A DNA stretch of 64,000 nt from the NCBI GenBank assembly GCA_050179755.1, contig JBFXEV010000001.1, positions 9,994 to 73,993 on the forward strand, given 5' to 3'. Made by a program: the position numbers and the translations under genes. The notes beneath the pieces are model-generated. The model was given only the letters and a program-made list of their open reading frames with translations, was not told where the DNA came from and did no database searches. How positions within the stretch are numbered: the stretch's first letter is position 1; every line of letters starts with the position of its first letter. This DNA comes from Candidatus Babeliales bacterium. Lineage in GTDB: Bacteria > Babelota > Babeliae > Babelales > JBFXEV01. This document shows, piece after piece, positions 5,239 through 60,680 of the stretch.

Positions 5239-5294
5239 ATGCATCCTTTAAATTTTACTTCCTACAAACCTACTACCCAAAAAGGGGGGTGCGG

Positions 5295-14277: not shown

Positions 14278-14491
14278 CTTTTCAAATCTTTCTTAAAAAT
14301 GAATTGTTTAATTTTCTATAATAAAATAACATAGCGCCTTTTGGCAAAATAGCAAAAAGGGCCAGAATAGACTTAATTATAGCATATTTTCTTGATATAT
14401 GTACTATATTGTAATACTATAAATTACATAATAAATATATAAAATATCCCTTAATTTTCTATTTGTACAAAACAACTTAAGGATAAGCTTC

Positions 14492-30261: not shown

Positions 30262-31212
30262 ATGGAACAATATGCATACTTTCTCCATTTTATAAGCATT
30301 GGACTAGTAGTAGCATTAACATCTATTGGTGTGGGCATTGGAGCGGGATTTACCGGGCAAGCTACCGTGCGCAATTTATATCGCCAGCCTGGTGCCGCAA
30401 CTGATCTTTATAAAGCTTCATTTATCAGCTTAGCTCTTGTGGAAACCTCCGGTATTTTTAGTATTGTTATGGCATTTATTCTTCTTTTTAATAAAGAAGT
30501 GCCCAATTTTTTTGGCAGTATTGGCACGCTTGGTATTGCTTTTGGACTTGGGATTGCAGGATTTGTAACGGGCATTTATTCATCATTGCCTGCGCAAGCA
30601 GCCTTTAAAGCGATTGCTCGTCAGCCCTTTTTTGCTCCTCGCATTATTAACTTGATGGTCATCGCCCAATCACTCATTCAAACACCAGTAATTTTTGGGC
30701 TCATTGTCTCATTACTTATTAGCGCATCTATCAGCTCCGCTCAAATGCTTGCAGAAGGCACTCAACTACTTGCTGCTGGCCTGTGTATTGGCCTTGGCAG
30801 CATTGGTCCAACTATTGGCCTTGGCAGATTTACGTATGAAGCTTGTTATACTGCAGGAATCAATCGCTCAGCATATGGCAAGATTGTACCGTTTACTCTT
30901 ATAAGTGGTGCCATTATTGAAACGCCGCTTATTTTTACACTTATTGTTGCCTTACTAGTTACCCAAACAACATTTGAAAATTCATTTGTAGAGATAGTAA
31001 TTCCGTTTATGGCAGCTTTGTGTATGGGATTAGGAGCACTCGGCGCTGGCCTTGCCTCATCACGCACAGCAACTGCTGCATGTATTGGCATTGGCAAAGA
31101 TCCACATGCAACTTCTTTAATCTCTAAAGCAAGTTTGGTAGCACAAGCGCTTATTGACGCGATTGCTATATATGCTTTGCTTATTGCCTTGTTAATGATA
31201 TTCTTAAGATAA
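30262..31212 (+). CDS. atpE: F0 ATP synthase subunit c with four fused hairpins (316 aa)
   Basis: Four GxGxGxG helix-loop-helix units with loops RQP, RQP, INR and KDP; follows atpB. Confidence 0.9.
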   Translation: MEQYAYFLHFISIGLVVALTSIGVGIGAGFTGQATVRNLYRQPGAATDLYKASFISLALVETSGIFSIVMAFILLFNKEVPNFFGSIGTLGIAFGLGIAGFVTGIYSSLPAQAAFKAIARQPFFAPRIINLMVIAQSLIQTPVIFGLIVSLLISASISSAQMLAEGTQLLAAGLCIGLGSIGPTIGLGRFTYEACYTAGINRSAYGKIVPFTLISGAIIETPLIFTLIVALLVTQTTFENSFVEIVIPFMAALCMGLGALGAGLASSRTATAACIGIGKDPHATSLISKASLVAQALIDAIAIYALLIALLMIFLR

Positions 31213-42328: not shown

Positions 42329-44332
42329 ATGAAAAGCCCCATTACTTTGAGTATAATGCTTTTAAGCATGTCGCTCGTGGCAACTCCACTTTTTGCAAAG
42401 TCTGATACAAACAAATTTACTTGCTGTCCAAAAATAAAACACGAACATAAATGTAAATCAGTTATTAACATTACAGCACACGATATTAATGAAGCTTCAA
42501 AGCATAGCGCTGAGGGTTTAGTTCTTCGCCATCCTGGTAACTATAAAGTTTGTGAGAATGTAAGATGGAAAACAAAAAGATCAGAAAGTTATGCAATAAC
42601 GATTAAGGCTGATAACGTATCGCTTGATCTAGATGGACATTTTATTAAACAACACGATACAACGCTTGCAAATAATTACGCAATACAAGTTACTGGTGAT
42701 ACACAATATACCCTTATCCACAATGGTACATTACAGCAAATTTCCGGTGGCGGTGTGATCGTGCAAGGGGGTGCGCGTGGCATAACTATTGATCAAATAG
42801 AGTGCAATAGATGCTGCTATGCGGGCCAACTTAATAATGACATATTCCCTATTCCATTCTTATCAGCAATAACTCTTTTTGGAACTTCAACTGCACCAAT
42901 TCAAAATGCTGTGATCACAAATTGTAATGTTACTGATAATGGAATCATTGGCATAGAACCAGTATGGTTCCAAGCAACAATAGCAGGCACTACTTTAACA
43001 CTGACTGAACCTCCGCTCTATCCACTTACTCCAGGTTTTGAGCTAAGACTTTCTGATGGCACAACTTCAGTTGGTATGGTTATCGCCAACATTGTTGAAC
43101 AACTCTCTCCAACTACATTTACCATTACGCCAACAGCACCCATTGGAGTTCCTACCACTATGACGGTAACGGATCCGAATGGCGCATTTGTTCCAGCATT
43201 ACCAATTGTTTCACCATTTGGACCTACATTCACTGGGTATACGTTTGCCATTAGTACACTCGGCACTTCAAATGTTTCGGTAGAACATAACATTGTAAAT
43301 AAGAGCTTTGGCTATACAGCATCATATGCACTGACATTCGTTGGTAGCCGTGGACTTGTTGTATCAAATAATCTTGTACACAATCTCACCACCTTTGGTT
43401 TAACAAAAGGTCTTTTCTTGGTATTTATGCAAGATTGTTTAGTAGAAGATTTGGCAGTAGATAATCTGGTTTGCAACGCCATACCACTTTTCTCAGACAC
43501 TTCAATTGGCCATGGAGCTGAAGGAACAAAAGTATCTGGAGTATCCAATACAATCTTGCGCAGAGTTACTTATGATGGAAGCACAGTGCAAACTGAAATA
43601 CCTACAACGCTCACTCACCCTACAGCATACTATGATTGTGTTGGATTAATCACTGATTTTATTGGATTATCTGATCTTTTAATTGAAGATTGTGTTGCTA
43701 AAAATATGATAAATGATGGTGGCCGAGTGGCAAGCAATCCATCATACACTGCAGGTTTTAACGCAGCAACATTCTTTGGCAATATTCAAAACTTGCACTA
43801 TTCACGTTGCACTGCCTTTAATATTACTGCCTCAGCAGGATATGCATGGGGCTTTGGTTGCAATCCAGGAGCACAGGCACTTGGCGATCCAAGCAATCTT
43901 ACATATTCAGATTGCGTGGTTCACAATGTAAGAACCATAAATGATGGTATCTACGCTGCAGGATTCTTAATTAATGGTACTGAAAACCAAGTGGTGCGAT
44001 GCTCTGCAAACCAAGTTGTAGGAAGCTCAGCTTATGGCATTCTTCTAGGTTCTACAAATTCTAGCCAAGGTACTCGTTGTATTATTGCCAATAACAGAGT
44101 AACTCATTGTGACACCTACGGGATCGTTGATGCTACAAATTGGAATGTTTCACATAACATTTTCAATAGCAACTATGCATACTTAAATGGCATTGCTGGC
44201 AACAATAATTACCAAATTAATTTTACAGTCAACCCAGTTCGTGCTTGGAGTACTACTGGTGCCCCAGACCCGGTAGATCAGTTTGGTATTCTTGATCCAG
44301 AACTTGATAACCTCGATATTCGTAGTTCCTAA
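42329..44332 (+). CDS. Secreted right-handed beta-helix protein
   Basis: Signal peptide, ITIKADNVSLDLDG and parallel beta-helix-type repeats with Cys/Asn ladders. Confidence 0.8.
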   Translation: MKSPITLSIMLLSMSLVATPLFAKSDTNKFTCCPKIKHEHKCKSVINITAHDINEASKHSAEGLVLRHPGNYKVCENVRWKTKRSESYAITIKADNVSLDLDGHFIKQHDTTLANNYAIQVTGDTQYTLIHNGTLQQISGGGVIVQGGARGITIDQIECNRCCYAGQLNNDIFPIPFLSAITLFGTSTAPIQNAVITNCNVTDNGIIGIEPVWFQATIAGTTLTLTEPPLYPLTPGFELRLSDGTTSVGMVIANIVEQLSPTTFTITPTAPIGVPTTMTVTDPNGAFVPALPIVSPFGPTFTGYTFAISTLGTSNVSVEHNIVNKSFGYTASYALTFVGSRGLVVSNNLVHNLTTFGLTKGLFLVFMQDCLVEDLAVDNLVCNAIPLFSDTSIGHGAEGTKVSGVSNTILRRVTYDGSTVQTEIPTTLTHPTAYYDCVGLITDFIGLSDLLIEDCVAKNMINDGGRVASNPSYTAGFNAATFFGNIQNLHYSRCTAFNITASAGYAWGFGCNPGAQALGDPSNLTYSDCVVHNVRTINDGIYAAGFLINGTENQVVRCSANQVVGSSAYGILLGSTNSSQGTRCIIANNRVTHCDTYGIVDATNWNVSHNIFNSNYAYLNGIAGNNNYQINFTVNPVRAWSTTGAPDPVDQFGILDPELDNLDIRSS

Positions 44333-44390: not shown

Positions 44391-46385
44391 ATGAAAAATT
44401 TGTTATATCTGGCCATGTTGTTTTTTAGCGCATCATTAATCAATGAACAAATATTTGCAGAAACTCTAAACAGAAACAACAATCGATTATGTTGTCCAAA
44501 TAAAAAACAATGTAAAACATTCATCAACATTACTGCGCACGATATTAACCAAGCATCACAAGACAGCGCACAAGGATTGGTACTTGATAAGCCAAATACT
44601 AATTATAAGCTGTGCGAAAATGTAAACTGGACAACTTCAAGACCTAATAGTTTTGCTATTACCATTGCTGCTGATAACGTAACTCTTGATCTTAACGGTC
44701 ATACTATAAAACAACAAGATATAACCCAAGCTGCCAGCTTTGCCATTAACGTATTAGGCACCACAAATTTTACGATTATACAAAATGGAACTTTACAACA
44801 AATTTCTGGTGGCGGGATTCTTGTGAATGCCGGAGCACATTGTCTTACTATTGACGCAATCACCTGTAATCAGTGTTGCTACAATGGTCAAACTGCGGTG
44901 GTTCCTCCGCTTCCTGGACTAGATAATGCTGCTTCGGCACTGTTATTTAATGGATCTCCAGATGCCCTGATAGAAGACGTTATTATTACTAATTGCAGAT
45001 TCTGTGATAATGGAATAATTGGTACGGCTCCCGTATGGTTCACAGGAACAGTTTCTAATAGCACTACGTTAACTTTAACAGAGCCTCCGTTATATCCTGT
45101 GACGCCCGGCTTTATTCTTTCAAGCGGTGGAACTATACTTGGCACAATTGTTTCACAAGAATCACCAACAACATTTACTATTTCTCCAACGTCAGATATC
45201 GGGCCAGTGGCCATGACCGTAACTGATCCAAATGGTGCCTTTATTCCGTTTGGCAATGTTTCATTTATGTATGTAGCTTTTGCATCAAATATTACCGTTG
45301 AAAACTGCATTGGCTCTGGTAACTTTGGTTATTTTTTCTCGTTTGCTTTATTCTTTGTAAAATCTGAATTTATCAACATCTCTAATGTAAAAATAAATAG
45401 CCCAACTACTTTTGTACTATGCAAGGGTATGGAATTCGCGGGTTGCAATAATGTCATTGCACAAGACATAGATATAACTAATCTAACTATGAATTTTACA
45501 CCTGACGCAGATAACTTTGCTATTGGCCATGGCGCAGAAGGTATCAAATGTGGATCGAGCTTTGATTGTATTTTCCGCCGCATCAACTTTAGCCGTAGTC
45601 GCGTACAAACACAGGTGCCAACTGCCTTGACAGCGCCGACTGCTTATGTAGATTGCTGCGGCATATTTTATGATGTGCTTTCCGGCCTTGGTCCTATTAG
45701 AAATATCGTTGTAGAAGATTGTACAGCAGTAGATATGCGCAGTGATGGTGGCAAAGTCGCAAGTAATGTCTCGTATACTGCCGGCTTTAATAATAGCTCA
45801 GCAATTCTCTTTGGAACTATCCAAGAAGAAATGAATAATTTACGTTATGAAGGTTGTTCAGCTTCAGGCATTTTTGCAGAAGTTGGTTGGGCTTATGGAT
45901 TTGGTTCTTCACCAGAACCAAACTTTATTGCAATTGAAAACGATATTTCGTATGTAAATTGCATGGCGGAGGATATTACTATTACAGGTTCAGGCATTTT
46001 CGCAGCAGGATATATTCTTACAGCTGAAAGAAATATTATACGCGATTGCTCAGCAAATCGTATTTTGGATGAACGACCAAATCCTGCAGCGTATGGTGTT
46101 TTACTCGATAATTTAGGTGATGGCAACCAAGCAAGAGCGTGTATCATTGCAGAAAATACTATCACTAATTGTTCGACAACTGGAATTTTGGACATTAGTA
46201 CCTTAAATAACAATATCGTAAACAGTAATTATGCAGCATTGAACGGATTTTTAGGAGCTGGACCAAACTATGTTGGCCTTGCGCCAAGCAGTGCAGCCTT
46301 AATTCAAGATTGGCCACTAAATGGCGTGCCTGCAGCTCCGCCGGTGGGTGGGCCCGTATTGGCAAACGTTTCTGTACATAACTAA
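44391..46385 (+). CDS. Secreted right-handed beta-helix protein, tandem paralog
   Basis: Shares INITAHDIN, NGTLQQISGGG, LTLTEPPLYP, TDPNGAF and IGHGAEG with 42329..44332. Confidence 0.8.
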   Translation: MKNLLYLAMLFFSASLINEQIFAETLNRNNNRLCCPNKKQCKTFINITAHDINQASQDSAQGLVLDKPNTNYKLCENVNWTTSRPNSFAITIAADNVTLDLNGHTIKQQDITQAASFAINVLGTTNFTIIQNGTLQQISGGGILVNAGAHCLTIDAITCNQCCYNGQTAVVPPLPGLDNAASALLFNGSPDALIEDVIITNCRFCDNGIIGTAPVWFTGTVSNSTTLTLTEPPLYPVTPGFILSSGGTILGTIVSQESPTTFTISPTSDIGPVAMTVTDPNGAFIPFGNVSFMYVAFASNITVENCIGSGNFGYFFSFALFFVKSEFINISNVKINSPTTFVLCKGMEFAGCNNVIAQDIDITNLTMNFTPDADNFAIGHGAEGIKCGSSFDCIFRRINFSRSRVQTQVPTALTAPTAYVDCCGIFYDVLSGLGPIRNIVVEDCTAVDMRSDGGKVASNVSYTAGFNNSSAILFGTIQEEMNNLRYEGCSASGIFAEVGWAYGFGSSPEPNFIAIENDISYVNCMAEDITITGSGIFAAGYILTAERNIIRDCSANRILDERPNPAAYGVLLDNLGDGNQARACIIAENTITNCSTTGILDISTLNNNIVNSNYAALNGFLGAGPNYVGLAPSSAALIQDWPLNGVPAAPPVGGPVLANVSVHN

Positions 46386-48156: not shown

Positions 48157-49590
48157 ATGCAGCATCACCTCACTCTCTGCATCTTCACCATCACCATGCC
48201 AATCTTTACGATGGAACCTTTTCTCTTAACAGATCAAGTACCTCAACTTCACGAACTGTGCATGCGCCATATTGTAAAAGCCATAAGCTCTCATAAACCA
48301 GAATTTTGCCGTGACCGCGAGTTCCACATAGGCAAACTGCAACAAGAAAATGCTACACTTCTTGAACAAGAAACCTGTGAAGATCTTAGAATAAAACTTA
48401 AAACACTTATACTTGAATGTTACCATGCATACCTTGAAGGTTGCCCCTGGCAAGAAGTAAAACCAACGCTAACCCCGACAGCTTCTCTTCTTAATGATCC
48501 AACGTTTTGCTATGATTATGCACCAGACCAAAAACTGCTTGCAGCTTTTATTAAAACACAAAAACAAAAATCTCTTCTACAGCTCTTTAGTCTTAAAAAG
48601 AAAGCTTTAATCTCGTTAGTAAGCATGGATCTAAGTACGTATAATAATGTACATAGTATTAAATTTAGCCCTCGTGGATCATATGTAGCAGTAGCTTATG
48701 GTGAACCTAACCATCGCCTTGAACATGTACTTATTCCCATTATACAATGCGCTCCAGGCTACATGCAAAAACGGCGTTTCCACATGCCTTCACTAAAAAA
48801 AGTACATGTCTATTCTGTGCATTTCAGCCCTGATGAGAGATATTTAATTACTCGTTCACTCCATAAAGTAACAATCAGCGATTTATTAAGTGACCAAATG
48901 AAACACTCTGAGATTGTGCCAATTACTGGCACCATCAAAAAAGATTATGCGTATGTGATGATAAGCCCTACCAGTTACCATCTTGCAGCACGTCAATATG
49001 GAGGCACTATTGATATTTATTCATATGCCAATGGCACACCTTATTTAATCTCCAGATTTGTATCTAATTTTCTTAATAATAGATTTCATTGGATGCCTTG
49101 TGGCACCAAATTGCTTATACAAGAAGCAAATACCAATCTTTATTGGAGCCCCTACACAGATACTATGCAAAATCTCACCACGCGCTTTCCACTTATTCAT
49201 GATCATGTGATGGCGCACAGCCCATGCCAAAAATATCTTGCATATAGTTCGCCAGTTGGAACAGTAATACTTGATAGCAAACTAAATAAATATTGGATTC
49301 TTAGTAAATTTCTTCCAAGCAGAATGACCTTTGATAAGCAGAGCAACCTGAGCATATTGCAATCAGATGGCACTACTACCACCCATGCACCATATGAATA
49401 TGGTGCAATGTCATTACCACAACTTCTATCAGTATGTTGGCTTGCAAAAAGTGTGCTTAATCCACATAAAAATACCAGTGCATTAGATAGCCACCATGCT
49501 GCCCATTGTATTACTGCCACAGAGGGGTTTCAATCTTTGCCAAGGCCAATACAGCTAGTGTTTATAAAGCGGATTAAAGGAAAACTATAA
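48157..49590 (+). CDS. Secreted WD40/beta-propeller-like protein
   Basis: IKFSPRGSYVAV, VHFSPDERYLIT, ISPTSYHLA and HSPCQKYLA blade motifs. Likely ATG at 48157; the track starts at 48112. Confidence 0.65.
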   Translation: MQHHLTLCIFTITMPIFTMEPFLLTDQVPQLHELCMRHIVKAISSHKPEFCRDREFHIGKLQQENATLLEQETCEDLRIKLKTLILECYHAYLEGCPWQEVKPTLTPTASLLNDPTFCYDYAPDQKLLAAFIKTQKQKSLLQLFSLKKKALISLVSMDLSTYNNVHSIKFSPRGSYVAVAYGEPNHRLEHVLIPIIQCAPGYMQKRRFHMPSLKKVHVYSVHFSPDERYLITRSLHKVTISDLLSDQMKHSEIVPITGTIKKDYAYVMISPTSYHLAARQYGGTIDIYSYANGTPYLISRFVSNFLNNRFHWMPCGTKLLIQEANTNLYWSPYTDTMQNLTTRFPLIHDHVMAHSPCQKYLAYSSPVGTVILDSKLNKYWILSKFLPSRMTFDKQSNLSILQSDGTTTTHAPYEYGAMSLPQLLSVCWLAKSVLNPHKNTSALDSHHAAHCITATEGFQSLPRPIQLVFIKRIKGKL

Positions 49591-50124
49591 TATATATTTT
49601 TTTAATACGCGATGCTGCGCGCCTTCAGCAGTAAGTTTAGACTCTTTTAGCACAAAAGAATTTATCTTAAAAGTGCATGAAGGAATATCAATACGTTCAA
49701 GTCTTTCTAAAAACTTAATTTGATCTTTAATAAATTTCACACGCGCAATGGTAATATGACTTAAAAAAGCACGATCTTCCACCACAGCATATTCTTTTGC
49801 AATGGATTGAATGTGCGCCACAAGCTCAAGCAATTCCTGGCCAAGTAAATCAATATACACTATTCTTAAGTCTTTATTTTGTGGCAAAATGCCTAATTGC
49901 CCTAATCTGACAGTAAAAGGGCTAAACTTAATTGCATCTAATGCAAGTCGTAGCGCACTAACTTTATTCTCAGGAACTTCGCCAAAAAAGTGCAACGTAA
50001 GATGCAACTGATCCCGTAGCACCAAGCGCAAATCACCACAACCAAGGTCTAATATTTTTCTTTGAATAGCAACTAATATATCTTTAACTTGCTCAGGAAA
50101 TTCCAGTGCAACAAAGATGCGCAT
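49585..50124 (-). CDS. thpR: RNA 2',3'-cyclic phosphodiesterase (2H family)
   Basis: MRIFVAL, two HxT motifs (HLTL and HITIAR) and ESKLT..GA.H. Confidence 0.92.
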   Translation of the reverse strand: MRIFVALEFPEQVKDILVAIQRKILDLGCGDLRLVLRDQLHLTLHFFGEVPENKVSALRLALDAIKFSPFTVRLGQLGILPQNKDLRIVYIDLLGQELLELVAHIQSIAKEYAVVEDRAFLSHITIARVKFIKDQIKFLERLERIDIPSCTFKINSFVLKESKLTAEGAQHRVLKKYIL

Positions 50125-51582
50125 TTACCCACCTTTAATTACTGCTAAAGGTGTCAAGCGCACAACTTTGCGCGCAATTTTAGATTTTTGCACCACATCA
50201 ACCACATCTTCTACGTCTTTATAAGCAATAGGTGCCTCTTCAGAAAGGCCTGCATCTGAATCACAACGAATTAGAATGCCATGCGCTTCAAGGTCTTTAC
50301 GTAATTCTGTACCACGAATAGTTTTTTTAGCTTTTGCCCGCGAAAGCCTACGCCCTGCTCCATGGCATGATGATCCAAATGCAACTTGCATACCTTCTTC
50401 TGTACCCACAAGTACATATGAAGACGTGCCCATGGTTCCAGGAATAAGAACTGGATGGCCGTATGCACGGTATTGCTCCGGAACCTCAGGATGCCCTGCT
50501 GGGAATGCACGCGTTGCGCCCTTGCGATGCACTAATAATTTTGTTGGTTTATCATTCAGAATATGTGTTTCTAATTTGCCCATGTTATGTGAAAGATCAT
50601 ACACCATAGACACTTTAGCATCTTTGCCCACTGTAGCCTCAAATGCTTCGCGCACCCAATGGCCAATCAAGTGCCGATTTGCCCATGCAAAATTTGCAGC
50701 GCCTTTCATAGCACTAAAATACTCTTGCGCTTCACGCGTTTGAAAGGGCGCACATACAAGCTCTCGGTCAGGTAATTCAATACCCCATTCTTTTACTTTT
50801 GGCATCATCAAACGCACATAGTCAGTGCATACTTGATGACCAAGTCCACGGGAGCCACAATGAATCATCACAACGACTTGATTGAGCTTTAAGCCAAAGG
50901 CTTGTGCAATTTTTGCATCAAAAATTTCATCAACACGTTGTACTTCAAGAAAGTGATTACCTGAACCTAAAGTTCCAAGTTGATCAGACCCTCTTTTTTT
51001 TGCTTGCTCAGAAATAGAACGCGGATCAGCATCAGGCATGCACCCATTTTCTTCACAACGGTCAATATCACCGAGCTGGCCATACCCTTGCGTAAGCATA
51101 TATGGCGCACCACCTTTAATAACGTTATCAAGCTCACCAAGAGATAATTTAACTTTGCCTCCTTGCCCCACGCCAGAGGGCACGCGTGCAAAAAGTTCAT
51201 CAGCAAGTTTGGGCAAATACGGTTTGAGTTCATCAGCATTCATATTTACCGCAAGCAAGCGAACGCCACAATTAATATCATAGCCAATGCCACCAGGAGA
51301 AATAACACCACCTTGATCAACAATTGTTGCTGCTACGCCGCCAATTGGAAAACCATATCCTTGATGAATATCTGGCATGGCCAGTGCACGCTTTGCAATA
51401 CCAGGAAGCGTTGCTACATTTGCAAGCTGCCATAATGAACGATCTTCTAAAATATCATCTATTATTGCTTCACTTGCAAATAAACGCGCGGGAACTTGCA
51501 TATCTGCTCTGAATTCTCTTGGAATTTCATAAACAGTTTCATCAAGTTTTATTAAATCTTTTTTCTTTACTTCTTGTTCCAT
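50125..51582 (-). CDS. rtcB: RNA-splicing/repair ligase RtcB
   Basis: MPDIHQGYGFPIGG, GYDINCG, GTLGSGNHFLE, HCGSRG, HRKGATRA and HGAGR. Confidence 0.97.
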   Translation of the reverse strand: MEQEVKKKDLIKLDETVYEIPREFRADMQVPARLFASEAIIDDILEDRSLWQLANVATLPGIAKRALAMPDIHQGYGFPIGGVAATIVDQGGVISPGGIGYDINCGVRLLAVNMNADELKPYLPKLADELFARVPSGVGQGGKVKLSLGELDNVIKGGAPYMLTQGYGQLGDIDRCEENGCMPDADPRSISEQAKKRGSDQLGTLGSGNHFLEVQRVDEIFDAKIAQAFGLKLNQVVVMIHCGSRGLGHQVCTDYVRLMMPKVKEWGIELPDRELVCAPFQTREAQEYFSAMKGAANFAWANRHLIGHWVREAFEATVGKDAKVSMVYDLSHNMGKLETHILNDKPTKLLVHRKGATRAFPAGHPEVPEQYRAYGHPVLIPGTMGTSSYVLVGTEEGMQVAFGSSCHGAGRRLSRAKAKKTIRGTELRKDLEAHGILIRCDSDAGLSEEAPIAYKDVEDVVDVVQKSKIARKVVRLTPLAVIKGG

Positions 51583-51590
51583 TTTAAAAC

Positions 51591-52028
51591 CTATATATCA
51601 AACACAATATCTACTTGATACCCATCATTAGTTTTAAGTATTTTAAGATCGTGATAAGTAACCGCTTTAATTTCAATGCCAAACCGTTTAACTGGCACAC
51701 CCTTAATCGTTGCTTCTAATGCGCGTTCATTAAATATGTGTACATCAACCGCAAGATAAGCCTCATTATGCACATCACTTAAATATAACGCTTCAGATAA
51801 AAAATCAATAAGGAGCAAATCAACTTCAGATGAAGCTATTTTAATAGTGTGATGCGCAGGTAATAATTGGCAAACCACTCGCTCATCTATAATCTTACAT
51901 TGAGGAACAACGGGCTCAATAGATTGGAACATACCAATAAGAGCATTAGAAAATAATTCAGACAATGATGCCCCATAAACCCGAATTTTTAAATCGGCTG
52001 TATGGGGCAACGCTTCAAAATCTCTCAT
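51591..52028 (-). CDS. Archease
   Basis: HTAD, EIKAVTYH and terminal VFDI; directly upstream of rtcB. Confidence 0.93.
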   Translation of the reverse strand: MRDFEALPHTADLKIRVYGASLSELFSNALIGMFQSIEPVVPQCKIIDERVVCQLLPAHHTIKIASSEVDLLLIDFLSEALYLSDVHNEAYLAVDVHIFNERALEATIKGVPVKRFGIEIKAVTYHDLKILKTNDGYQVDIVFDI

Positions 52029-52039
52029 GAATATCTTAT

Positions 52040-52600
52040 CTAGTAATTACCACAACCACTTGACCAACACGATGCACCGCAAGCCTCAGCAACTACTCTT
52101 TTTGGAACTTTAACAAGAACTGTTTTCCAATAACCTGGAAATATAATTTCTTCTGTTCTTATCTCATATTCATCTTCTTGAGGTCGAGTTGAAGCTCCTT
52201 CTGCCGTTGGCTTTTCTGCTACCATTACTCTTGCAGCAGCATTTAATTGTTCTTGAGATGCTACTCGAGCCACGCCAATAGCCGCAACCCTTGCCACTAA
52301 TCCTGAGCTGCCCGCATCCATTCTTTCTTGAGGTGCAGTGGCGACATGGTCTGTAGCATCTGTCATCGCAACAGCTGACGGTGCTTGAGCATGCAGATTG
52401 GTAATATCTTTAAGCGGAACTTTATTACTATCGGAAGAAGAAGAAAGCTGCGTACGGCCTTGGTCTGGTAAATCTGCCAATTCTTGTCTTGATGGTATTC
52501 TAGTAACAGTACCAGGAATAGCTACGCTGGGCAGCATTCCTTGTGCCACATCAAAAAATCCGAAAAAAACCAACCCGAAAAAAAACGAACGTTTGAGCAT
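52040..52600 (-). CDS. Hypothetical secreted low-complexity protein
   Basis: Signal-peptide-like start MLKRSFFFGLVFFGFFDVAQG; Ala/Ser-rich body. Confidence 0.55.
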   Translation of the reverse strand: MLKRSFFFGLVFFGFFDVAQGMLPSVAIPGTVTRIPSRQELADLPDQGRTQLSSSSDSNKVPLKDITNLHAQAPSAVAMTDATDHVATAPQERMDAGSSGLVARVAAIGVARVASQEQLNAAARVMVAEKPTAEGASTRPQEDEYEIRTEEIIFPGYWKTVLVKVPKRVVAEACGASCWSSGCGNY

Positions 52601-52773: not shown

Positions 52774-54234
52774 ATGAACAAATTTTGCTCTTTCATGTAC
52801 CTTATGCTTATATTTGCTTCACTAAACGCACACGAAAATAAACTACCCAGAGCGCGTTCAAAAGAACTGGCGTATGAACGCCACTTACTAAGTTCTTTTT
52901 GTTTTGACCAAACAATGGACCCAATTGTTTTTAAATATCTATTTTCAAATAATCTCCAGTATGCTCAAGATTTTGCAGATCGTCTTAATGCTATCATTAA
53001 AGTTTTTTTTAATCTCGTAAGCGCAGATATTTGTATGCGCACGCACGCATGCCTTATCTTTACCAAACTTCAGATTGAAGAACCCTATAATGGTACGCTG
53101 CAAAAAGTAATTAATGAACTTATCCCTCTCTATTTTGATTCCCATGGTTGCCTTGTGCATCTTGACGCACAAGACACAAAAACACGTAATTTTTGCATTG
53201 CACAGTTATTAAAAAATGGCATAGATAATGATACTTATAAAAAGCTTCTTCATATCTTTAATTTCAATGATGTGGCGTGCTATGAAGAAAAAACAAGCTC
53301 ATATATAAGTGAAAACCTCTATCATTTTGCTACAGGCGGCTGGCTGCCATCTATTACCTGGTACCCACATAACATTAAACAACGTATTGCTGAGCACGCG
53401 CACAATCGGCACATTGAAGAATTACTTACTTTATGCGTAGACACTGACTTTATTGTTGCTCATAGTTTTATTACTACGCATTCACACCCAGTATTACGCG
53501 AGCTTTTTACTGAAAGTTATAAAGACTATACGCAAAAATACTGTAATGCCTGCGGCATTATCAAAGAATATGAAGATGATCCTTATTGGGCATCGCTCTC
53601 ACCCGAAGATCAAGCGCACTATAGCAATGATTTAGAAAAAATTATGGCGCTAAATACGACATTAAAAAAGCGATCCGAACAAAAAAGGAAACTCCAAGAA
53701 AATTGGGCAATAGATGAACATGCACCTACCTATGTGCATGCAACGCTTTTTGAACTCCTTGAATTTCTTGAAACAACCAGTTATTGTATAGGCCATATAT
53801 TTGAAATCATGCAAAAATATTCCGCTGACGAACAGCAAGAATTGCAAAAAGCTCTCTTTCTCAAAAACGGGATCCTTAAACAATTTGCTCTTTTTAGCGA
53901 TTCTTCACGTTATTCTTTCCCGCAGCAACTTTTTTCTGAACCAGATATGCTTCTTGAAATAAATAAACTTTTCTATCTTCAGCATATGCATCAAAATTCA
54001 TATGAAGGTATTATTGCTCGTATTACCTTAGATCAACTGCATGCATTCTATGATCCGCAACTTAACAAAATGCCCAAATTGATTGATTATGATTTAGAGA
54101 CGATGCAAAATCCCAGCTTTTTTACACGCATGCAATCAAGAATAGAGAAAATTACAAATCGCATGCCATATTACACAACAACCTATACTTCGATTAAGAA
54201 GGCAATTGCATATATCATAAGTAATTTTTCTTAA
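52774..54234 (+). CDS. Secreted protein paralogous to the central region of the downstream toxin, without the nuclease tip
   Basis: RTHACLIF, ELIP.YFD, LKNGI, ATG.WLPS.TWYP and ALFL.NGILK are shared with 54299..57130. Confidence 0.8.
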   Translation: MNKFCSFMYLMLIFASLNAHENKLPRARSKELAYERHLLSSFCFDQTMDPIVFKYLFSNNLQYAQDFADRLNAIIKVFFNLVSADICMRTHACLIFTKLQIEEPYNGTLQKVINELIPLYFDSHGCLVHLDAQDTKTRNFCIAQLLKNGIDNDTYKKLLHIFNFNDVACYEEKTSSYISENLYHFATGGWLPSITWYPHNIKQRIAEHAHNRHIEELLTLCVDTDFIVAHSFITTHSHPVLRELFTESYKDYTQKYCNACGIIKEYEDDPYWASLSPEDQAHYSNDLEKIMALNTTLKKRSEQKRKLQENWAIDEHAPTYVHATLFELLEFLETTSYCIGHIFEIMQKYSADEQQELQKALFLKNGILKQFALFSDSSRYSFPQQLFSEPDMLLEINKLFYLQHMHQNSYEGIIARITLDQLHAFYDPQLNKMPKLIDYDLETMQNPSFFTRMQSRIEKITNRMPYYTTTYTSIKKAIAYIISNFS

Positions 54235-54298
54235 CCATTGCTTAAATAAGAAAACTATAGTACAAATAGTAGGTCGGTATGTACATCACAGGAGCCAT

Positions 54299-57130
54299 AT
54301 GCTACAAAGACCTCGATTACGAAAATTAGCTTTATGTTTATTGATATTAATTCTATTCGATGAAATAGTTATACAAAAATGTAAACCAATTGCTCCTGCT
54401 GTGGCGTTAGCACCAATAGCCTATGAAACAATCTTACTCAGTGCTGCTGCAGCAACTTCAATTTATAGTGCATACTTGTTAACACAAATTTCAGACCCTG
54501 TCTTGCGCACTCATAGTCAAACATTGCCAACTATAGCTCAAGAACTAAAAGAAATTTTCCCAAGCACACCTTCTCATGTCCCTCACTCGCCAGATTTTAT
54601 CGCACAGGCTTTAGAAGAATCTGTTGGTCAGGCTTCCTATAAAAAAGCTTATAAAAGCCAATTCACTAAAATCCAAGAGCAATCTTTAATAAACACAATC
54701 AATACAAATATAGTCCATCCTGCTATCGCACGTAATAAGCATATTAACTCAATACCTTCACAACAATTAAGTACAACGCCACTTACACCCTCATTACCAA
54801 GTTCACCAATACAATTTACCTATCAACCAAATGCAATCCATTTTGAAGTCCCACATATCAATACATATGGATCAATAGCGGTAACTGAGGAAAGACCACT
54901 ATCCTCAGTTCGTCAACAAATCATTAACAATTGCCATGAACATGCACTAGATGAATTTCTTTTCAATGAACGGTGCAAACATATTCCAGGTTATCTGGCT
55001 AATTTTACCGAGCAGCTTAACGAGATCATCTTAGTTTTTCATGATTTAGTAAGTGAGGATATCTATAAACGCACACATGCTTGCCTTATTTTTCCTCATA
55101 TAAGTATTGAAGGGCCATTTAACTATACGCTGCAAAATGTAATTCATGAGCTCATTCCCTTCTACTTTGACACTGAAGGAAAATTGGAAAGGCTGTTTCC
55201 GCATAACAAAGTAACTCATGATTTTATTATCGCAAAATTTCTTAAAAATGGTATCAATAGATCCACGTACCTACAACTTCTTAAAACCTTCAATTTTAAG
55301 GAAGTCCTTGAACATGAAGAAAACCTCGGGTCTTATCTTTGGAATGGGGTCAAACATACGGCAACTGGGGCTTGGTTGCCAAGCCTCACTTGGTATCCTC
55401 GCGATATTAAAAAATTAATCAGCCACAACAACTTTAATCATGGGCTTGAACAAATTTTAACGCTCTGTAGTAAAAATAAATTTGTAGAAGCACAAAATAT
55501 TGTTAACTCCGCGGGGCTTGAAGTTCTTGCGTGGCAAGAACTCTACCAACAATGTTATCATGCATTCAAAAGTAAATACTGTGATAGTTATGGCATATTA
55601 ATCGAGTATCTAAGCGATCCTCTCTGGGCGAATGCCACTAACGAAGCTAAAGCTGAACTTGCAAGAAACATAATGGATGTCACTACCTTTAATAATGCGC
55701 TTGCAGTTCGCTCAATTCAAAAAAAGTCTATAGAAAAGTCTTGGGGCATAGCATCAGACGCACCTACGTGTGTGCATAACGCGGTCTATTGTCTTATAGA
55801 CCTTCTAGGAACAGGTACCGAATTTATTGATAAAGTTCATGAATTAATCGCACAAGAAGATAAATTTAAACGAGATGCATTAATTGAAGCGCTTTTTTTA
55901 CCAAACGGTATCTTAAAAGATTTTAGCCATTTTTCTGCAATTGATACGTATCATTTTCCAAAAGATATTCTTACTCAACCAAAATTGCTAAAGAAAATAA
56001 ATACGTTATTTTATCAGCAACATATATTTGCTGGAAGTGAGCAGGGAACTAATGCTGCTATTAAATTAAATACACTTCAAGCGATATATGATACTAGATT
56101 CTCAAGTAACATTCCACAAGCAAAAACTAGCGAATACTGGCCATTTGACCAAGAGAATACAAACTTTAAGGAACAAATACTCAAACGAGCCCTTGCAGTG
56201 AGTCACTACCTTGCTGATTATTCTAATACAATGTATAAATCAGTGCGCAATGCTATTCTGGATATTGCACCCTCTTTATTCCTTGCAAATGAAAATACTG
56301 AACCAACGCCACAGAATGAGCCGCCGCCTGGCGAACAAGTTCCTTTTGAGGAAGATGCACCAACGCCTGAAACAAAGCCAGATTCAGAAGAAGAGGTAAT
56401 TGCTCCAGAAGTAGTTTTTGAACCAACTAAGCCAAGTAAATCGACCCCTTCAAGCTCTGGAAGTAATTTATTAGATCCAAGCAATGGAACTCCACCTCTT
56501 GAAAATGAACCCTCAATATATTATATTCCACGTGAACTACCTAATGATCCTGAGGATTGGGCCAAAGAGAAGAATGGAATAAAACCTTGGGTTCCACCTT
56601 CAAGTAATTGGAAGTCTGAACAAGCAAAGGCTTATTTGCAATTTCTTGGGCAAGGATTTTTGCGCACGGGCTTGGCAGCAATGGGTATTCCCTTTGAAGA
56701 CTTTGAATACGCTTTAGAAATATTTAAAAATATTCCTGGTTTCTTATCCAACAATAGTGCATTCCAACAAATCATACGCTATTGCTATAGACAGCCAATT
56801 AAAAACTGGCATCAAATTAAAGGTTTTATTTATGAAATTCAGACGGCATTACGGGTTGACACAAATCGAGAGCAAATAATTGAGTTTGGTAGAAAAGTGC
56901 CAAGCGGGGAAATTGATATTATTACAACGACACGTTTTATTGAATGTAAAAATATTAAATGGGAAAATAATATTGACGCAATTAATGATTGTAAGAATAC
57001 TATTGGAAAACAAATAAAACATATTCATGAAGAATTAGGCAAAAGGCTTACAGTCTTTTCAAAAGAACCGCTACCACAAGAATTAAAAAATTGGTTTATT
57101 AAAAAAAATATAGAATATTTCGAGGGTTAA
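54299..57130 (+). CDS. Putative polymorphic toxin with C-terminal PD-(D/E)xK (restriction-endonuclease-like) domain
   Basis: Signal-like N-terminus, helical carrier region, Pro/Glu-rich linker, then KGFIYE...EIDII....IECK; followed directly by small homologous genes. Confidence 0.7.
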   Translation: MLQRPRLRKLALCLLILILFDEIVIQKCKPIAPAVALAPIAYETILLSAAAATSIYSAYLLTQISDPVLRTHSQTLPTIAQELKEIFPSTPSHVPHSPDFIAQALEESVGQASYKKAYKSQFTKIQEQSLINTINTNIVHPAIARNKHINSIPSQQLSTTPLTPSLPSSPIQFTYQPNAIHFEVPHINTYGSIAVTEERPLSSVRQQIINNCHEHALDEFLFNERCKHIPGYLANFTEQLNEIILVFHDLVSEDIYKRTHACLIFPHISIEGPFNYTLQNVIHELIPFYFDTEGKLERLFPHNKVTHDFIIAKFLKNGINRSTYLQLLKTFNFKEVLEHEENLGSYLWNGVKHTATGAWLPSLTWYPRDIKKLISHNNFNHGLEQILTLCSKNKFVEAQNIVNSAGLEVLAWQELYQQCYHAFKSKYCDSYGILIEYLSDPLWANATNEAKAELARNIMDVTTFNNALAVRSIQKKSIEKSWGIASDAPTCVHNAVYCLIDLLGTGTEFIDKVHELIAQEDKFKRDALIEALFLPNGILKDFSHFSAIDTYHFPKDILTQPKLLKKINTLFYQQHIFAGSEQGTNAAIKLNTLQAIYDTRFSSNIPQAKTSEYWPFDQENTNFKEQILKRALAVSHYLADYSNTMYKSVRNAILDIAPSLFLANENTEPTPQNEPPPGEQVPFEEDAPTPETKPDSEEEVIAPEVVFEPTKPSKSTPSSSGSNLLDPSNGTPPLENEPSIYYIPRELPNDPEDWAKEKNGIKPWVPPSSNWKSEQAKAYLQFLGQGFLRTGLAAMGIPFEDFEYALEIFKNIPGFLSNNSAFQQIIRYCYRQPIKNWHQIKGFIYEIQTALRVDTNREQIIEFGRKVPSGEIDIITTTRFIECKNIKWENNIDAINDCKNTIGKQIKHIHEELGKRLTVFSKEPLPQELKNWFIKKNIEYFEG

Positions 57131-57556
57131 ATGGGAATCATGCATAGCGTGAAAATTAAAGTTCATGCCTTCTTTCAAGAAAACTCAATTGAATTAATAC
57201 TACAGCAAGCCGTAGACGCTCGGTATAAACTGTATATTGCAGAAGATTATGAATATTTCAAGCCTGAAAAAAATTCAATAATTTCGCCTCGAACTGCTAC
57301 AAAAACAATTTTCAAAATATATCAGGAAACTAACTATGGTGGCCCGATTATTGCAAAACTTGATGAAACGGAAGTTCTTTTATCTTTTAATTTCGAAAAT
57401 CCATACCTTATAGTTAAAATAACACTTTTTTCAAATGACTGGGAAAAGGAATTCCCAAATGGCGAAAGTCAAAAAGATTTTGCCCGTTACATTTCCTTTT
57501 TGCTCAAAATCACACAGGATTTCCCAATAAGCAATTTGGAAATTAAATACCTTTAA
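57131..57556 (+). CDS. Putative cognate immunity protein 1
   Basis: ATG immediately follows the toxin TAA; family motif NGESQKDFARYISFLLKITQDFPI. Confidence 0.7.
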   Translation: MGIMHSVKIKVHAFFQENSIELILQQAVDARYKLYIAEDYEYFKPEKNSIISPRTATKTIFKIYQETNYGGPIIAKLDETEVLLSFNFENPYLIVKITLFSNDWEKEFPNGESQKDFARYISFLLKITQDFPISNLEIKYL

Positions 57557-57579
57557 GCTTAATTATATTTGAGGGCTAA

Positions 57580-58005
57580 ATGGGAATCATGCACACAATT
57601 AAGATAGTCCTTAAAGATTACCTAAAAGAAGAATCTGTTGAATCAATATTAAAGAGAGCAATTGAAGCTAATTGCGGTATATATATATCAGAAGATTACA
57701 TATTTTTTGAAGATGAAAAAAATCATGCTATTTCTGCTGATATAGCCACTAAAAAAATTTTTAAAACAAACCACGAAACGGATGATGTTAAAGGGATTAT
57801 TATTAAAATTAACAATACAGAAATTGCTTTATCATTTAATCATGATGATTCAAATCTTGTTGCGTATTTAACTCCATTAGTATCCCGCTCAGAAAGAGAT
57901 TTTCTCAATGGCGAATCTCAAAAAGATTTTGCCCGCTATATTTCTTTGTTGCTGACTATCACTCAAGATTTTCCATTAATAGATATAGAAATACTGTACC
58001 AATAA
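57580..58005 (+). CDS. Putative immunity protein 2 (paralog)
   Basis: MGIMH start and NGESQKDFARYISLLLTITQDFPL. Confidence 0.7.
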   Translation: MGIMHTIKIVLKDYLKEESVESILKRAIEANCGIYISEDYIFFEDEKNHAISADIATKKIFKTNHETDDVKGIIIKINNTEIALSFNHDDSNLVAYLTPLVSRSERDFLNGESQKDFARYISLLLTITQDFPLIDIEILYQ

Positions 58006-58059
58006 ATTAATTTATAATGTTTAAAACTTAAAACATAATACTTACTAAATAGAAACACT

Positions 58060-58464
58060 ATGGAAAAAATACCTACTGCTAGAATCATCCTTAATGATTA
58101 CTTAGTAAAAGAATCAGTTGAATTAATATTAAAAAGAGCACTAGAAGATCACTGTACATTATATATCTTAGAAGAACAGAATAACCACCTTGCTTCTGCA
58201 CAAATAGCAACTCAGTTTATTTTTAAAATGCACAACGAAACTAATCAAGGAGGCACAATCATTGTAAAAGTTGAAAATACCACGATGCTATTATCCTTTA
58301 AATCTAATTTACCAGATCTGCTAGTCGATATAACACCCCTTTCTAATCATTGGAAAAAAACATTCTTGAATGGCGAATATCAAATTGACCTTGCACGATA
58401 TCTTTCGTTGCTATTATTAATTACTCAAGATTTTCCCATTATTAATATAGAAATTTTACACTAA
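58060..58464 (+). CDS. Putative immunity protein 3 (paralog)
   Basis: ESVELILKRA and NGEYQIDLARYLSLLLLITQDFPI. Confidence 0.7.
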   Translation: MEKIPTARIILNDYLVKESVELILKRALEDHCTLYILEEQNNHLASAQIATQFIFKMHNETNQGGTIIVKVENTTMLLSFKSNLPDLLVDITPLSNHWKKTFLNGEYQIDLARYLSLLLLITQDFPIINIEILH

Positions 58465-58514
58465 CCCCAACCTTCGGATGATATTAAAATGAGCAAGCTA
58501 CTTATGAGGGCTAA

Positions 58515-58927
58515 ATGGGCTTAGATCGCATAATCAAATTAACATTCACAGAACCATTAGAAAAAAATCACATTAGAAGTATTGTTACAAAACCATAGAC
58601 TTAGGTTCTGTATTTTATAATTATCCAGAAGAAGAATTTGCATGTAATCTTCTTTCTACAACGGATATTGTAGAACACTTCTATCAAAAAAATAACAACG
58701 GGGACTTTGGTGGAGGCCTTTTTGTGTATATTGATTCTAGTTATTTTATGCTCTCCATATATCAACAAAAAAACAAAAAAGCTACATTGAGTATATTCCT
58801 TGAAGTAGATTATTGGGAACATCCCCAATTTGAGTATGATTGTGACTACGAAAGATATATTAGATTTTTACTTAAAATTATTCAGCAAGTGCCATTGCAC
58901 ACTATCTCAATTGAATTCGAAATGTAA
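58515..58927 (+). pseudogene. Frameshifted immunity-like paralog 4
   Basis: ATG 58515 after gagggctaa reads MGLDRIIKLTF...IVTKP then stop. Restoring one base near 58590 continues through IDLGSVFYNY... into the track ORF ending DYERYIRFLLKIIQQVPL. Confidence 0.7.
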
Positions 58928-58931
58928 TAAG

Positions 58932-59408
58932 ATGCATAATATACCATTAATACAAATACAATTAGCATGTAGCTTCAGTGAAGAATATATTACACTTATT
59001 TTAAAACGTCTTCATAACGTAAATTGCTTCTTTTTTCATCTTTCTGAGAAAGAGAAAAGCCCTGAAATAAGAAATAAAATTTCATTAGAAACTGCTGCAG
59101 AATATCTCAGTAATCCATTAAACCGGGAGCCCAATATCCTGGGTATTTTAGTAAATATCAAAACTTATTATTTTGTACTTACTATTTATAGCAATGATTC
59201 ATTAGCAAGCGCTTTATGCTTAGGCATTTCACCTTTGGAAGCAACTACAGACATTAGTCCTTGGGTTTTATCATTATTAAATATTGTTCAGGGCGCGCCT
59301 ATTGAATCTATAAGCACCATCAATAAGGGATCGTCATCTTATTGGGAGTATGGTCGAATTGCTGAATCCAAAAGATTACGCGAAGAAGAAACAAACAAAT
59401 CTTCTTGA
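58932..59408 (+). CDS. Divergent immunity-like paralog 5
   Basis: Likely ATG at 58932 (the track starts at 58830). EEYITLILKR, ISLETA, GILVNI and DISPWVLSLLNIVQGAPI align with the family. Confidence 0.55.
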   Translation: MHNIPLIQIQLACSFSEEYITLILKRLHNVNCFFFHLSEKEKSPEIRNKISLETAAEYLSNPLNREPNILGILVNIKTYYFVLTIYSNDSLASALCLGISPLEATTDISPWVLSLLNIVQGAPIESISTINKGSSSYWEYGRIAESKRLREEETNKSS

Positions 59409-59439
59409 TAGATGCAATAAGTCACTATACGCTATATGC

Positions 59440-59892
59440 ATGGCTACATCACTCAAAGACTTATTACAAAATATAGTCCCACATCAAACTTCATGGAAAA
59501 CTGAGCTACAACAAAACTGGCACCATATTGTGGGCCATTTGGCCACTCATGTACAATTACTCAAAGTATATGAGAACGCATTACTCCTTGGTGTAAAAGA
59601 TTCAAGTTGGTTGCAAGAGATGTACCTGTTGTCCCCGCTTTTAATTGAGACAATTAATAAAAGTCTTGATAAACCCTACATTAATAAGCTACATTTTAAG
59701 AATGTAGGGGATGGTGAACAAACACAACAGACACGGGCTCCCCAGCCTAAAGAGAAAAAACCGCTGCCACCACAACTCATAAAAAAACATGTAACAAAGT
59801 TCCAGCAAGAAACGCTCGAACGAGTTGAGGATCCGGAATTACGTGAATCTCTTAAACAACTGTTGCTTACTTGCCGCGAGGAGCCAGAATGA
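59440..59892 (+). CDS. DUF721/DciA-like protein
   Basis: LQQNWHHIVG.LA.H...L.LGV.DSSWLQE...LIETIN pattern; likely ATG at 59440. Confidence 0.75.
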   Translation: MATSLKDLLQNIVPHQTSWKTELQQNWHHIVGHLATHVQLLKVYENALLLGVKDSSWLQEMYLLSPLLIETINKSLDKPYINKLHFKNVGDGEQTQQTRAPQPKEKKPLPPQLIKKHVTKFQQETLERVEDPELRESLKQLLLTCREEPE

Positions 59893-60680
59893 AGCGAGTA
59901 TATATACTTCTACTTGCAGGGGAATTTGCAGCCTATGCTAACCCAGAAGCACTAACTCCTGCAGACATAAAAAAAGAAGCCGATGAAGTAAATCATTATC
60001 ATTGGTCATTATGGGGCAACTATCAATATAGGCAAGGCAACATTAAACAAGCTGCCAATTGGTATTCTAAAATACTTGGCGATAATCCCACGCCCTATGC
60101 ACTGCATGGCTATGTAACAGCACTCTATAAATCTCATAATTATCCTGCCATATTAAACGTATTACCTGCTCTTGATGAACAATTTGCAAATGATCGTGAC
60201 ATGCAATTAATTTTTGCGCAAGCACTCCTTTATACCAAAAACTTTAAAGACGCTCACGCCAAATTTTCAAGCATATATGAAAAAAATAAAACACATGCAG
60301 AATCTGCATATTTTGCAGCAGAATCGTATTCACGACTTCAAGAATATACCAAAGCAATGGATGTTATTGATACGTATTTAAAACATTCAACCCAACAGCA
60401 CACTGACTTTCTATTTTATTTTTTAAAAGCACAAATATTTGCCGTGCAACATTATCTTGAAAAAGCACGTGAATTTGCTCTCAAAACATTGGAAATGAAT
60501 CCACGCTTTGAGCAAGCGGCAGTGTTTTTGCAACTTCTTGATAATATAGAGCGTGAAATACTCAAAAGTGGGGCAAAGAATATGACCCAATCTGCCTTGC
60601 GTAAATTTATACCGCAAGTGCAAAAACAATCAAATAATTTTTATCAAACAGAAAAAACGATATACTTTAGTAGATTATAA
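59889..60680 (+). CDS. TPR-repeat protein with signal peptide
   Basis: ATGA overlap with the previous gene; TPR-like helical pairs such as ALKTLEMNPRF. Confidence 0.7.
   Translation: MKRVYILLLAGEFAAYANPEALTPADIKKEADEVNHYHWSLWGNYQYRQGNIKQAANWYSKILGDNPTPYALHGYVTALYKSHNYPAILNVLPALDEQFANDRDMQLIFAQALLYTKNFKDAHAKFSSIYEKNKTHAESAYFAAESYSRLQEYTKAMDVIDTYLKHSTQQHTDFLFYFLKAQIFAVQHYLEKAREFALKTLEMNPRFEQAAVFLQLLDNIEREILKSGAKNMTQSALRKFIPQVQKQSNNFYQTEKTIYFSRL

Follow-up and report, generated by a model that had tools for sequence, protein, structure and literature searches.

The MafB/MafI systems of Neisseria combine a Sec-exported polymorphic toxin with an adjacent immunity gene. A locus of similar appearance is located at positions 52774-59408, on the plus strand, of a 64,000-nucleotide stretch of contig JBFXEV010000001.1 (the whole stretch is called the window here) from a Candidatus Babeliales bacterium of the phylum Dependentiae; it encodes a 943-amino-acid (aa) protein that ends in a predicted nuclease tip and is followed by an array of five small genes. 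Judged from sequence comparisons, this is a genuine polymorphic toxin locus, and MafB/MafI is probably its closest analogue in function and layout. A signal-like N-terminus, a conserved N-terminal carrier, a variable C-terminal toxin (including EndoU) and an immunity gene (putative in the window) immediately downstream, together with extra immunity genes (likewise putative in the window), are the characteristics in which the two are alike. The locus of the window differs from MafB/MafI in that its toxin has no MafB_N match and possesses a second hydrophobic segment, in that there are no orphan toxin cassettes in the locus, and in its occurrence in a different phylum. A table in the survey of polymorphic toxins by Zhang et al. 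(2012, PMC3482391) contains the entry 'T2SS (MafBN)'.

Other described systems resemble single parts of the locus. The Tox-REase-3 family (PF15647; Zhang et al. 2012) also consists of toxin tips with a restriction-endonuclease fold, and the consensus REFDII...IECK of the window-tip family resembles the KEFDVI...AEAK of a bona fide Tox-REase-3 member (P0053), the hhalign alignment to this protein covering 29 columns only (E 0.029). The motif reported for Tox-REase-3 is ExQxK (PMC3482391), whereas it is ExK in the window-tip family; in addition, the window tip has an extra N-terminal helical subdomain and the small genes are not Imm-SUKH or Imm7. The CdiA-CT/CdiI pair of Burkholderia pseudomallei (4g6v) likewise joins a PD-(D/E)xK tip to adjacent immunity, and its tip is matched to that of the window by Foldseek with a probability of 0.91 over 108 columns (E 0.08, root-mean-square deviation (rmsd) 4.9 Å, 11% identity); however, its delivery relies on a two-partner secretion filament, and Pfam revealed no repeats of this kind in the window toxin. 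In the VRR-Nuc pair TseV/TsiV of type VI secretion systems (T6SS) a PD-(D/E)xK toxin is neutralised by an adjacent immunity protein (PMC9635880), as is presumed here, but TsiV has about 330-360 aa, compared with 141 aa for the first small gene of the window. Polymorphic toxin loci have been described in other intracellular bacteria, namely Odyssella (PMC3482391) and Ca. Bodocaedibacter (PMC8163844), and the toxin/immunity modules CRCT/CRCA in Rickettsia (PMC9111745). These, too, are toxin and immunity modules of bacteria living inside eukaryotic cells, but their carriers, tips or immunity families are already known ones (Rhs/CDI-like, AHH, Imm43, Imm49 and others), whereas the carrier and small-gene families described here are unnamed and belong to Dependentiae. 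A search of a limited literature collection, with the supplementary tables of Dependentiae genome papers outside its scope, returned no report joining 'Dependentiae' and 'polymorphic toxin', and the words 'toxin' and 'immunity' were not found in the Dependentiae genome papers searched by term.

The list of open reading frames of the window contains seven successive frames on the plus strand of the locus. The toxin precursor (P0001, 54299-57130) starts with a basic N-terminus and two adjacent hydrophobic segments (aa 1-62, 54299-54484), which are followed by the conserved carrier core recognised by the family profile (aa 196-655, 54884-56263), a Pro/Glu/Ser-rich linker with 20% Pro and 16% Glu in which a recombination junction is located (aa 656-760, 56264-56578), and the tip (aa 761-943, 56579-57130). 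According to hydropathy, the basic start precedes two hydrophobic runs, one at aa 6-28 and an Ala-rich one at aa 30-56. A basic start with a hydrophobic run is present in all 44 full-length carrier relatives, and at least two hydrophobic segments are found within the first ~65 aa in 38 of the 44, which makes the topology ambiguous: aa 1-62 may be a membrane hairpin, or else an Ala/Gly-rich helix preceded by a signal or anchor. The comparison of the 943-aa protein with Pfam and NCBIfam gave no RHS/YD, hemagglutinin/CdiA, LXG, PAAR, MafB_N or Hint/PT-HINT match; at E<=1 only DUF1548 (17.2 bits, below the cut-off) and BRWD1_N were recorded in Pfam, and nothing in NCBIfam. The DUF1548 match in the carrier (E 0.0067) was rejected, as it did not recur in 56 relatives. 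In a protein atlas no feature match was obtained for the carrier core, and structural comparison gave TM scores of at most 0.29 on a poor model (predicted local distance difference test (pLDDT) 0.38). The carrier family appears to be undescribed, as no Pfam or NCBIfam model matches it. The signal-like start with its Ala-rich segment, the Pro/Glu linker, the missing signatures of known carriers, the small-gene array beginning without a gap behind the 943-aa protein, and the apparent novelty of the carrier and small-gene families had all been anticipated by the original prediction, which was made from the sequence alone, and they were found as described there.

The distribution of its parts supports a polymorphic toxin. 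An exhaustive profile search returned 335 relatives at E<=1e-3 (148 at E<=1e-10), and when the best 150 of the 335 were divided with part profiles, the tip was present without the carrier in 78, the carrier without the tip in 56, and the two together in 16. Counted as representatives among the stored matches, the carrier family has at least 75 members and the tip branch at least 95; a word-indexed search had found one full-length relative, P0003 (897 aa, 47% identity). Of 95 tip-bearing proteins, 91 have the tip at their very C-terminus, and 52 of these 91 finish in Glu-Gly. More than 250 aa precede the tip in 54 proteins, and the carrier of the window was recognised in 18 of them and not in the other 36, even after three iterations with hidden Markov models (HMMs). 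A second unnamed carrier cluster accounts for 22 of the 36 (P0032, P0036, P0043 and 19 others); its members mostly have signal-like starts, the same nuclease tip and no Pfam match. A PT-HINT pretoxin domain occurs in two tip-only proteins. In the opposite direction, the search for carriers with other C-termini that had been suggested as a check showed that, among the 56 carrier-only proteins, 14 terminate in a different named toxin domain: 10 in EndoU_bacteria (one slightly under the cut-off) and one apiece in Tox-REase-3, RNAse_A_bac (CdiA-CT RNase A), Ntox37 and Ntox21. Single-linkage BLAST clustering of the final 150 aa, applied to the 62 carriers whose tails measure at least 100 aa, gave 25 clusters, the largest of which may be inflated by linker similarity. 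Since the tip is found on other carriers and the carrier is found with other tips, the family displays the two-way modularity that defines polymorphic toxins in the sense of Zhang et al. (2012). The original prediction had named an invariable C-terminus of the carrier homologs as a refutation, and it withstood this test.

The same exchange can be followed among close relatives. A scan of genome contigs identified two loci, L001 and L002, in one Candidatus Babeliales metagenome-assembled genome. L001 is syntenic with the window, with RtcB, archease and a small secreted protein upstream and DciA, a tetratricopeptide repeat (TPR) protein, MurG and a 506-aa enzyme downstream; L002 sits elsewhere in the same genome. 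Among four close relatives the histories of tip and carrier are discordant. P0003 and L001 are 83% identical in the N-terminal part, 82% in the core, 44% in the linker and 33-39% in the tip, and the corresponding values for the window and P0003 are 48%, 49%, 34% and, in the tip, 74% and 60%. Along the window protein, the identity between P0003 and L001 falls from 0.7-0.8 to 0.25-0.4 across aa ~680-740, and that between the window and P0003 climbs to 0.73-0.80 from aa ~770, which places the switch point within aa ~680-770, in the linker. This pattern indicates that the tip was replaced by recombination between close relatives, with the breakpoint in the linker. The catalytic residues are retained in the L001 tip, which the family profile recognises at 3e-43; therefore, this tip is regarded as a different tip subtype and not as a decayed copy. 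The toxin gene of L001 is nevertheless broken: its frame shifts near codon 35-38, and two in-frame stop codons interrupt the part for the helical subdomain, yet both downstream small genes are intact. The loss of the toxin with retention of the small genes is what would be expected under conflict between strains.

The tip was modelled with AlphaFold2 from an alignment of 41 relatives, and its 183 aa fold with a pLDDT of 89 and a predicted TM score (pTM) of 0.84. Four N-terminal helices form the helical subdomain (aa ~771-835), which is followed, in tip numbering, by a helix at 77-95, strands at 100-107, 110-116 and 119-124, a helix at 132-152 and a strand at 156-161. The order alpha-beta-beta-beta-alpha-beta of this core is restriction-endonuclease-like; helix 1 carries the E, strand 2 the D and strand 3 the (D/E)xK motif. 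Across the 41 sequences four residues never vary (D113, E122, K124 and W128) and two hardly do (G82 and E86); they correspond to D873, E882, K884, W888, G842 and E846 of the full protein, and the motifs to which they contribute, GFIYE (G842/E846), GEIDI (D873) and IECK (E882/K884), are those from which a PD-(D/E)xK tip had been proposed. The best matches of the model in the PDB (Foldseek) were VC1899, Card1, Can2, NucS, EndoMS, AF1548 and the CdiA-CT toxin 4g6v_A; the top ones, with probabilities of 0.95-1.00 and a best E of 1.9e-3, all have the PD-(D/E)xK fold, and NucS is superimposed with an rmsd of 3.1-3.3 Å over 108 columns (probability 1.00). As neighbours, the protein atlas gives the Tox-REase-7 (0.91), Tox-REase-3 (0.90) and Tox-REase-5 (0.88) clusters. 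Tox-REase-3 is also the sole Pfam family that recurs among the relatives, being matched at E<=1 by 13 of 41 (best 2.3e-5), with scores of 20.1-25.1 bits against a gathering cut-off of 25 bits; a single protein among the 78 with the tip only reaches this cut-off (P0071, 25.1 bits). Because the relatives match weakly while the window tip does not match, the tip is placed on a distinct branch related to Tox-REase-3 and not within the family. The novelty that had been suggested for the whole system holds for the carrier and the small genes, both of which are unnamed, but it does not extend to the tip, which, by these profile comparisons, is a distant relative of Tox-REase-3 and not wholly new. Sequence searches of the PDB returned no match below E 0.17, whether the query was the tip, small gene 1 or one of the two family profiles, and the plasmid and phage collections contained no match for tip or carrier. 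On the basis of the model, the tip is a putative metal-dependent PD-(D/E)xK nuclease, which would presumably act on a nucleic acid substrate.

All five small genes lie on the plus strand. Small gene 1 (141 aa, 57131-57556), the presumed cognate immunity gene, is followed by small gene 2 (141 aa, 57580-58005), small gene 3 (134 aa, 58060-58464), small gene 4 (58515-58927) and small gene 5 (158 aa from its ATG, 58932-59408). Their identity to the first decreases along the array, as previously noted, from 50 and 47% to 24 and finally 18%, the fifth being the most diverged. Among 953 six-frame pieces, the HMM built from copies 1-3 recovers copy 4 (1e-9) and copy 5 (3.5e-4), and the one built from the copy-5 group recovers copies 1-4 (4e-10 to 2e-5); as the copies left out of each are detected, the homology of the five is not circular. 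The claim of five homologs of 134-158 aa is therefore correct with respect to homology, but four of them are intact and the fourth is frameshifted: it begins as a 27-aa piece (58515-58598), beyond a stretch of A the remainder is read in a different frame (58577-58927, the piece matched by the HMM of copies 1-3), and it is either a frameshifted pseudogene or a sequencing error at this stretch. Small gene 5 and the last small gene of L001 are orthologs (42%), a further protein (P0155) is 84% identical to small gene 5, and the L001 small genes match the small-gene family of the window at 4e-16 and 7e-7.

The ATG of small gene 1 begins on the base directly after the toxin stop codon, the junction reading GAGGGTTAAATG. 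At each of the three loci for which DNA context exists, two or more small genes come behind the tip, at a distance of 0 nucleotides (nt) in the window and L002 and with a 4-nt overlap in L001, and the junction GAGGG(T/A)TAAATG is common to the window (57122-57133) and L002 (12515-12526). The terminal Glu-Gly codons of the toxin constitute a Shine-Dalgarno-like GAGGG, and since this lies 4 nt ahead of the small-gene ATG, translational coupling is probable. The conserved Glu-Gly end of the protein may serve in addition as ribosome-binding site for the gene that follows. No Pfam or NCBIfam match beyond noise was obtained for the small genes (the Imm-SUKH, Imm7 and other Imm models included), nor a PDB sequence match. 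The model of small gene 1 (pLDDT 85.8) has no Foldseek match in the PDB at E<=1e-3; it is weakly similar, below significance, to PA0821, the immunity protein against a type VI effector of the PD-(D/E)xK kind (7drg_B; probability 0.94, TMq 0.41, E 0.011), and the best fold neighbour by TM score is BPSL2088/4rho, on which no literature was found. Used alone as a query in the word-indexed search, small gene 1 found only itself. These proteins are considered an undescribed putative immunity family, a function to which their position behind the toxin points.

What could such a locus do for an intracellular bacterium? We propose, with a probability of roughly 0.7, that the 943-aa protein is an exported toxin directed against related bacteria. 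The toxin would be made with the product of small gene 1 bound to its tip, and it would be exported by the Sec pathway through the N-terminal hydrophobic region, the nuclease tip hanging on the flexible Pro/Glu linker. A type II secretion or type IV pilus apparatus has been reported for the phylum (PMC4776705); the window contains a prepilin peptidase gene and a pilin-like gene, and no PAAR or T6SS components were seen in it. Once the tip had reached a neighbouring bacterium, E846, D873, E882 and K884 would cut nucleic acid there. In the producer the tip would be neutralised by small gene 1, translationally coupled to the toxin, whereas small genes 2, 3 and 5 could protect against the tip variants of related strains, and tip and downstream small gene together would be exchanged between strains by recombination in the linker. 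The likely targets would be related bacteria sharing the same host cell or vacuole.

Several observations weigh against this explanation. First, the adjacent N-terminal hydrophobic segments could form a hairpin that keeps the nuclease in the cytoplasm of the producer, unlike an exported toxin. Second, no Foldseek match of the tip in the PDB reaches E<=1e-3, and the window tip has no match to Pfam Tox-REase-3 (PF15647) even at E<=1. Third, the small-gene family is tiny: its profile retrieved 7 clusters from the word-indexed database, and every one of them belongs to the same few genomes; its link to the two L002 small genes is weak (hhalign P 2.3e-5 over 119 columns, and 5.5e-3), and profile searches of the window and the loci found no orphan tip cassettes or fragments beside the extra small genes. 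Finally, genomic context covers three loci, which come from two or three related genomes.

The rival that survives best is a host-directed effector, that is, a nuclease secreted into the protist to degrade host nucleic acids, the small proteins protecting the producer before export only. The relatives come from Candidatus Babeliales, the phylum is described as consisting of obligate intracellular parasites, whose many secreted nucleases have been suggested to be effectors (PMC6561590), and intracellular bacteria often aim toxin domains at their host (Zhang et al. 2012, PMC3482391). However, the host-directed toxins of intracellular bacteria are, according to PMC3482391, typically without immunity genes, whereas here five diverged copies are present; moreover, tips are swapped between near-identical carriers and a relative has kept its small genes after losing the toxin. 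The array, the tip swapping and the small-gene retention are patterns expected from conflict between bacteria, and a host effector is considered unlikely.

A membrane-anchored toxin-antitoxin or defence module is less plausible still, and we regard it as improbable. The protein would in that case be held in the membrane by a hairpin, with the nuclease at the cytoplasmic face, and be freed from its small protein on stress or infection. On the one hand, if the second hydrophobic segment acted as a stop-transfer sequence or part of a hairpin, the nuclease would stay cytoplasmic and a toxin-antitoxin-like reading would be favoured; the adjacent segments of the 38 carriers agree with this, by eye no canonical signal-peptidase motif is evident in the alignment, and the best structural neighbours of the tip include the defence nucleases Card1, Can2 and Cdn1. 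On the other hand, neither the toxin nor any small gene has a PADLOC match at E<=0.1, several diverged antidote copies are atypical of toxin-antitoxin pairs, and the sharing of the tip with PT-HINT proteins and of the carrier with EndoU, CdiA-CT RNase A and Ntox tips is a hallmark of exported polymorphic toxins. Least likely of all is a host-addiction module, in which toxin and antidote would both be delivered so that losing the bacterium kills the host, as hypothesised for the Bodo saltans endosymbiont with its polymorphic toxin loci (PMC8163844); the small genes have, by eye, no signal-like start, and the cultured Dependentiae are described in PMC6561590 as lytic pathogens and not as retained symbionts.

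Under the preferred explanation, an exported antibacterial toxin, a more specific role for the carrier can be put forward very tentatively. With its two-lobed hydrophobic N-terminus it might be a self-sufficient Sec-only delivery module for polymorphic toxins in Dependentiae, the second helix aiding the tip across the membrane of the rival without type V, VI or VII machinery; such toxins might serve kin discrimination among strains in one vacuole, with the immunity arrays recording past encounters. Polymorphic toxins as such are familiar, yet they are still rarely documented with full immunity sets in obligate intracellular bacteria. The novelty of the locus, which is not categorical, consists of the phylum, of the unnamed carrier and small-protein families that it defines, and of its distinct branch of restriction-endonuclease-fold toxins. 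Should these toxins act between bacteria, it would mean that the parasites compete inside their hosts, and the locus would offer a practical way into the ecology of an uncultured phylum. The carrier could also teach how toxins are delivered when the customary injection machines are not used.

The first reading frame of the locus, which was passed over in the original prediction although it lies within the region concerned, encodes a 486-aa paralog of the carrier core (52774-54234, plus strand). It is 38% identical to toxin aa 199-653 (E 1e-97) and is matched by the carrier HMM at 3e-138. Its start is signal-peptide-like, with a hydrophobic run at aa 3-19, and neither a second hydrophobic segment nor a linker or toxin tip was detected by hydropathy and tip-profile search. 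A match of this paralog to the CARF_PDDEXK model of PADLOC (18 bits, E 3e-4) was weak and treated as noise. The G+C content is the lowest of the window in the tip and the small genes (0.29-0.325 in the 56001-60000 region, versus 0.384 overall), and it is higher, 0.425, in the Pro/Glu linker; the low values are counted among the observations in favour of the proposed toxin locus. The promoter scan of the window predicted 29 sites, not above chance (32.3 +/- 5.8 in shuffles), the terminator-like sites are mostly intragenic, and Rfam and tRNA scans gave no matches.

Directly upstream of the toxin locus, on the opposite strand (49585-52028), lies an RNA-repair cluster of a LigT-like 2',5' RNA ligase/phosphoesterase, RtcB and archease, which is also present at L001 (6769-9390, minus strand) and not beside L002. 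RtcB can seal ends left by RNase tips such as EndoU and RNase A, which are common in the carrier family. This adjacency may be due to chance, because the window and L001 are orthologous and count once, and L002 is without the cluster. Between archease and the toxin locus, on the minus strand of both the window (52040-52600) and L001 (9410-9898), a small Ala/Ser-rich protein is encoded that has a signal-like start, a Cys-rich C-terminal tail and no family match. In L001 the interval between the small genes and DciA (13481-15663) holds an incomplete second copy of the DciA 5' end as well as an inserted gene for 388 aa, which by eye resembles a bicupin; this insertion is not in the window.

Further from the locus, open reading frames of 1445, 599 and 599 aa (5298-9632 and 3448-5244 on the minus strand, 22056-23852 on the plus strand) have no Pfam match at E<=1e-5 and no match to the carrier, tip or small-gene profiles. 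Two tandem paralogs on the plus strand (42329-44329 and 44391-46382), 46% identical over 648 aa, begin in a signal-like manner and are not matched by Pfam. The ATP synthase c-subunit gene (30262-31209, plus strand) encodes 316 aa with three matched ATP-synt_C stretches, a fused multi-hairpin form compared with the usual protein of ~80 aa.

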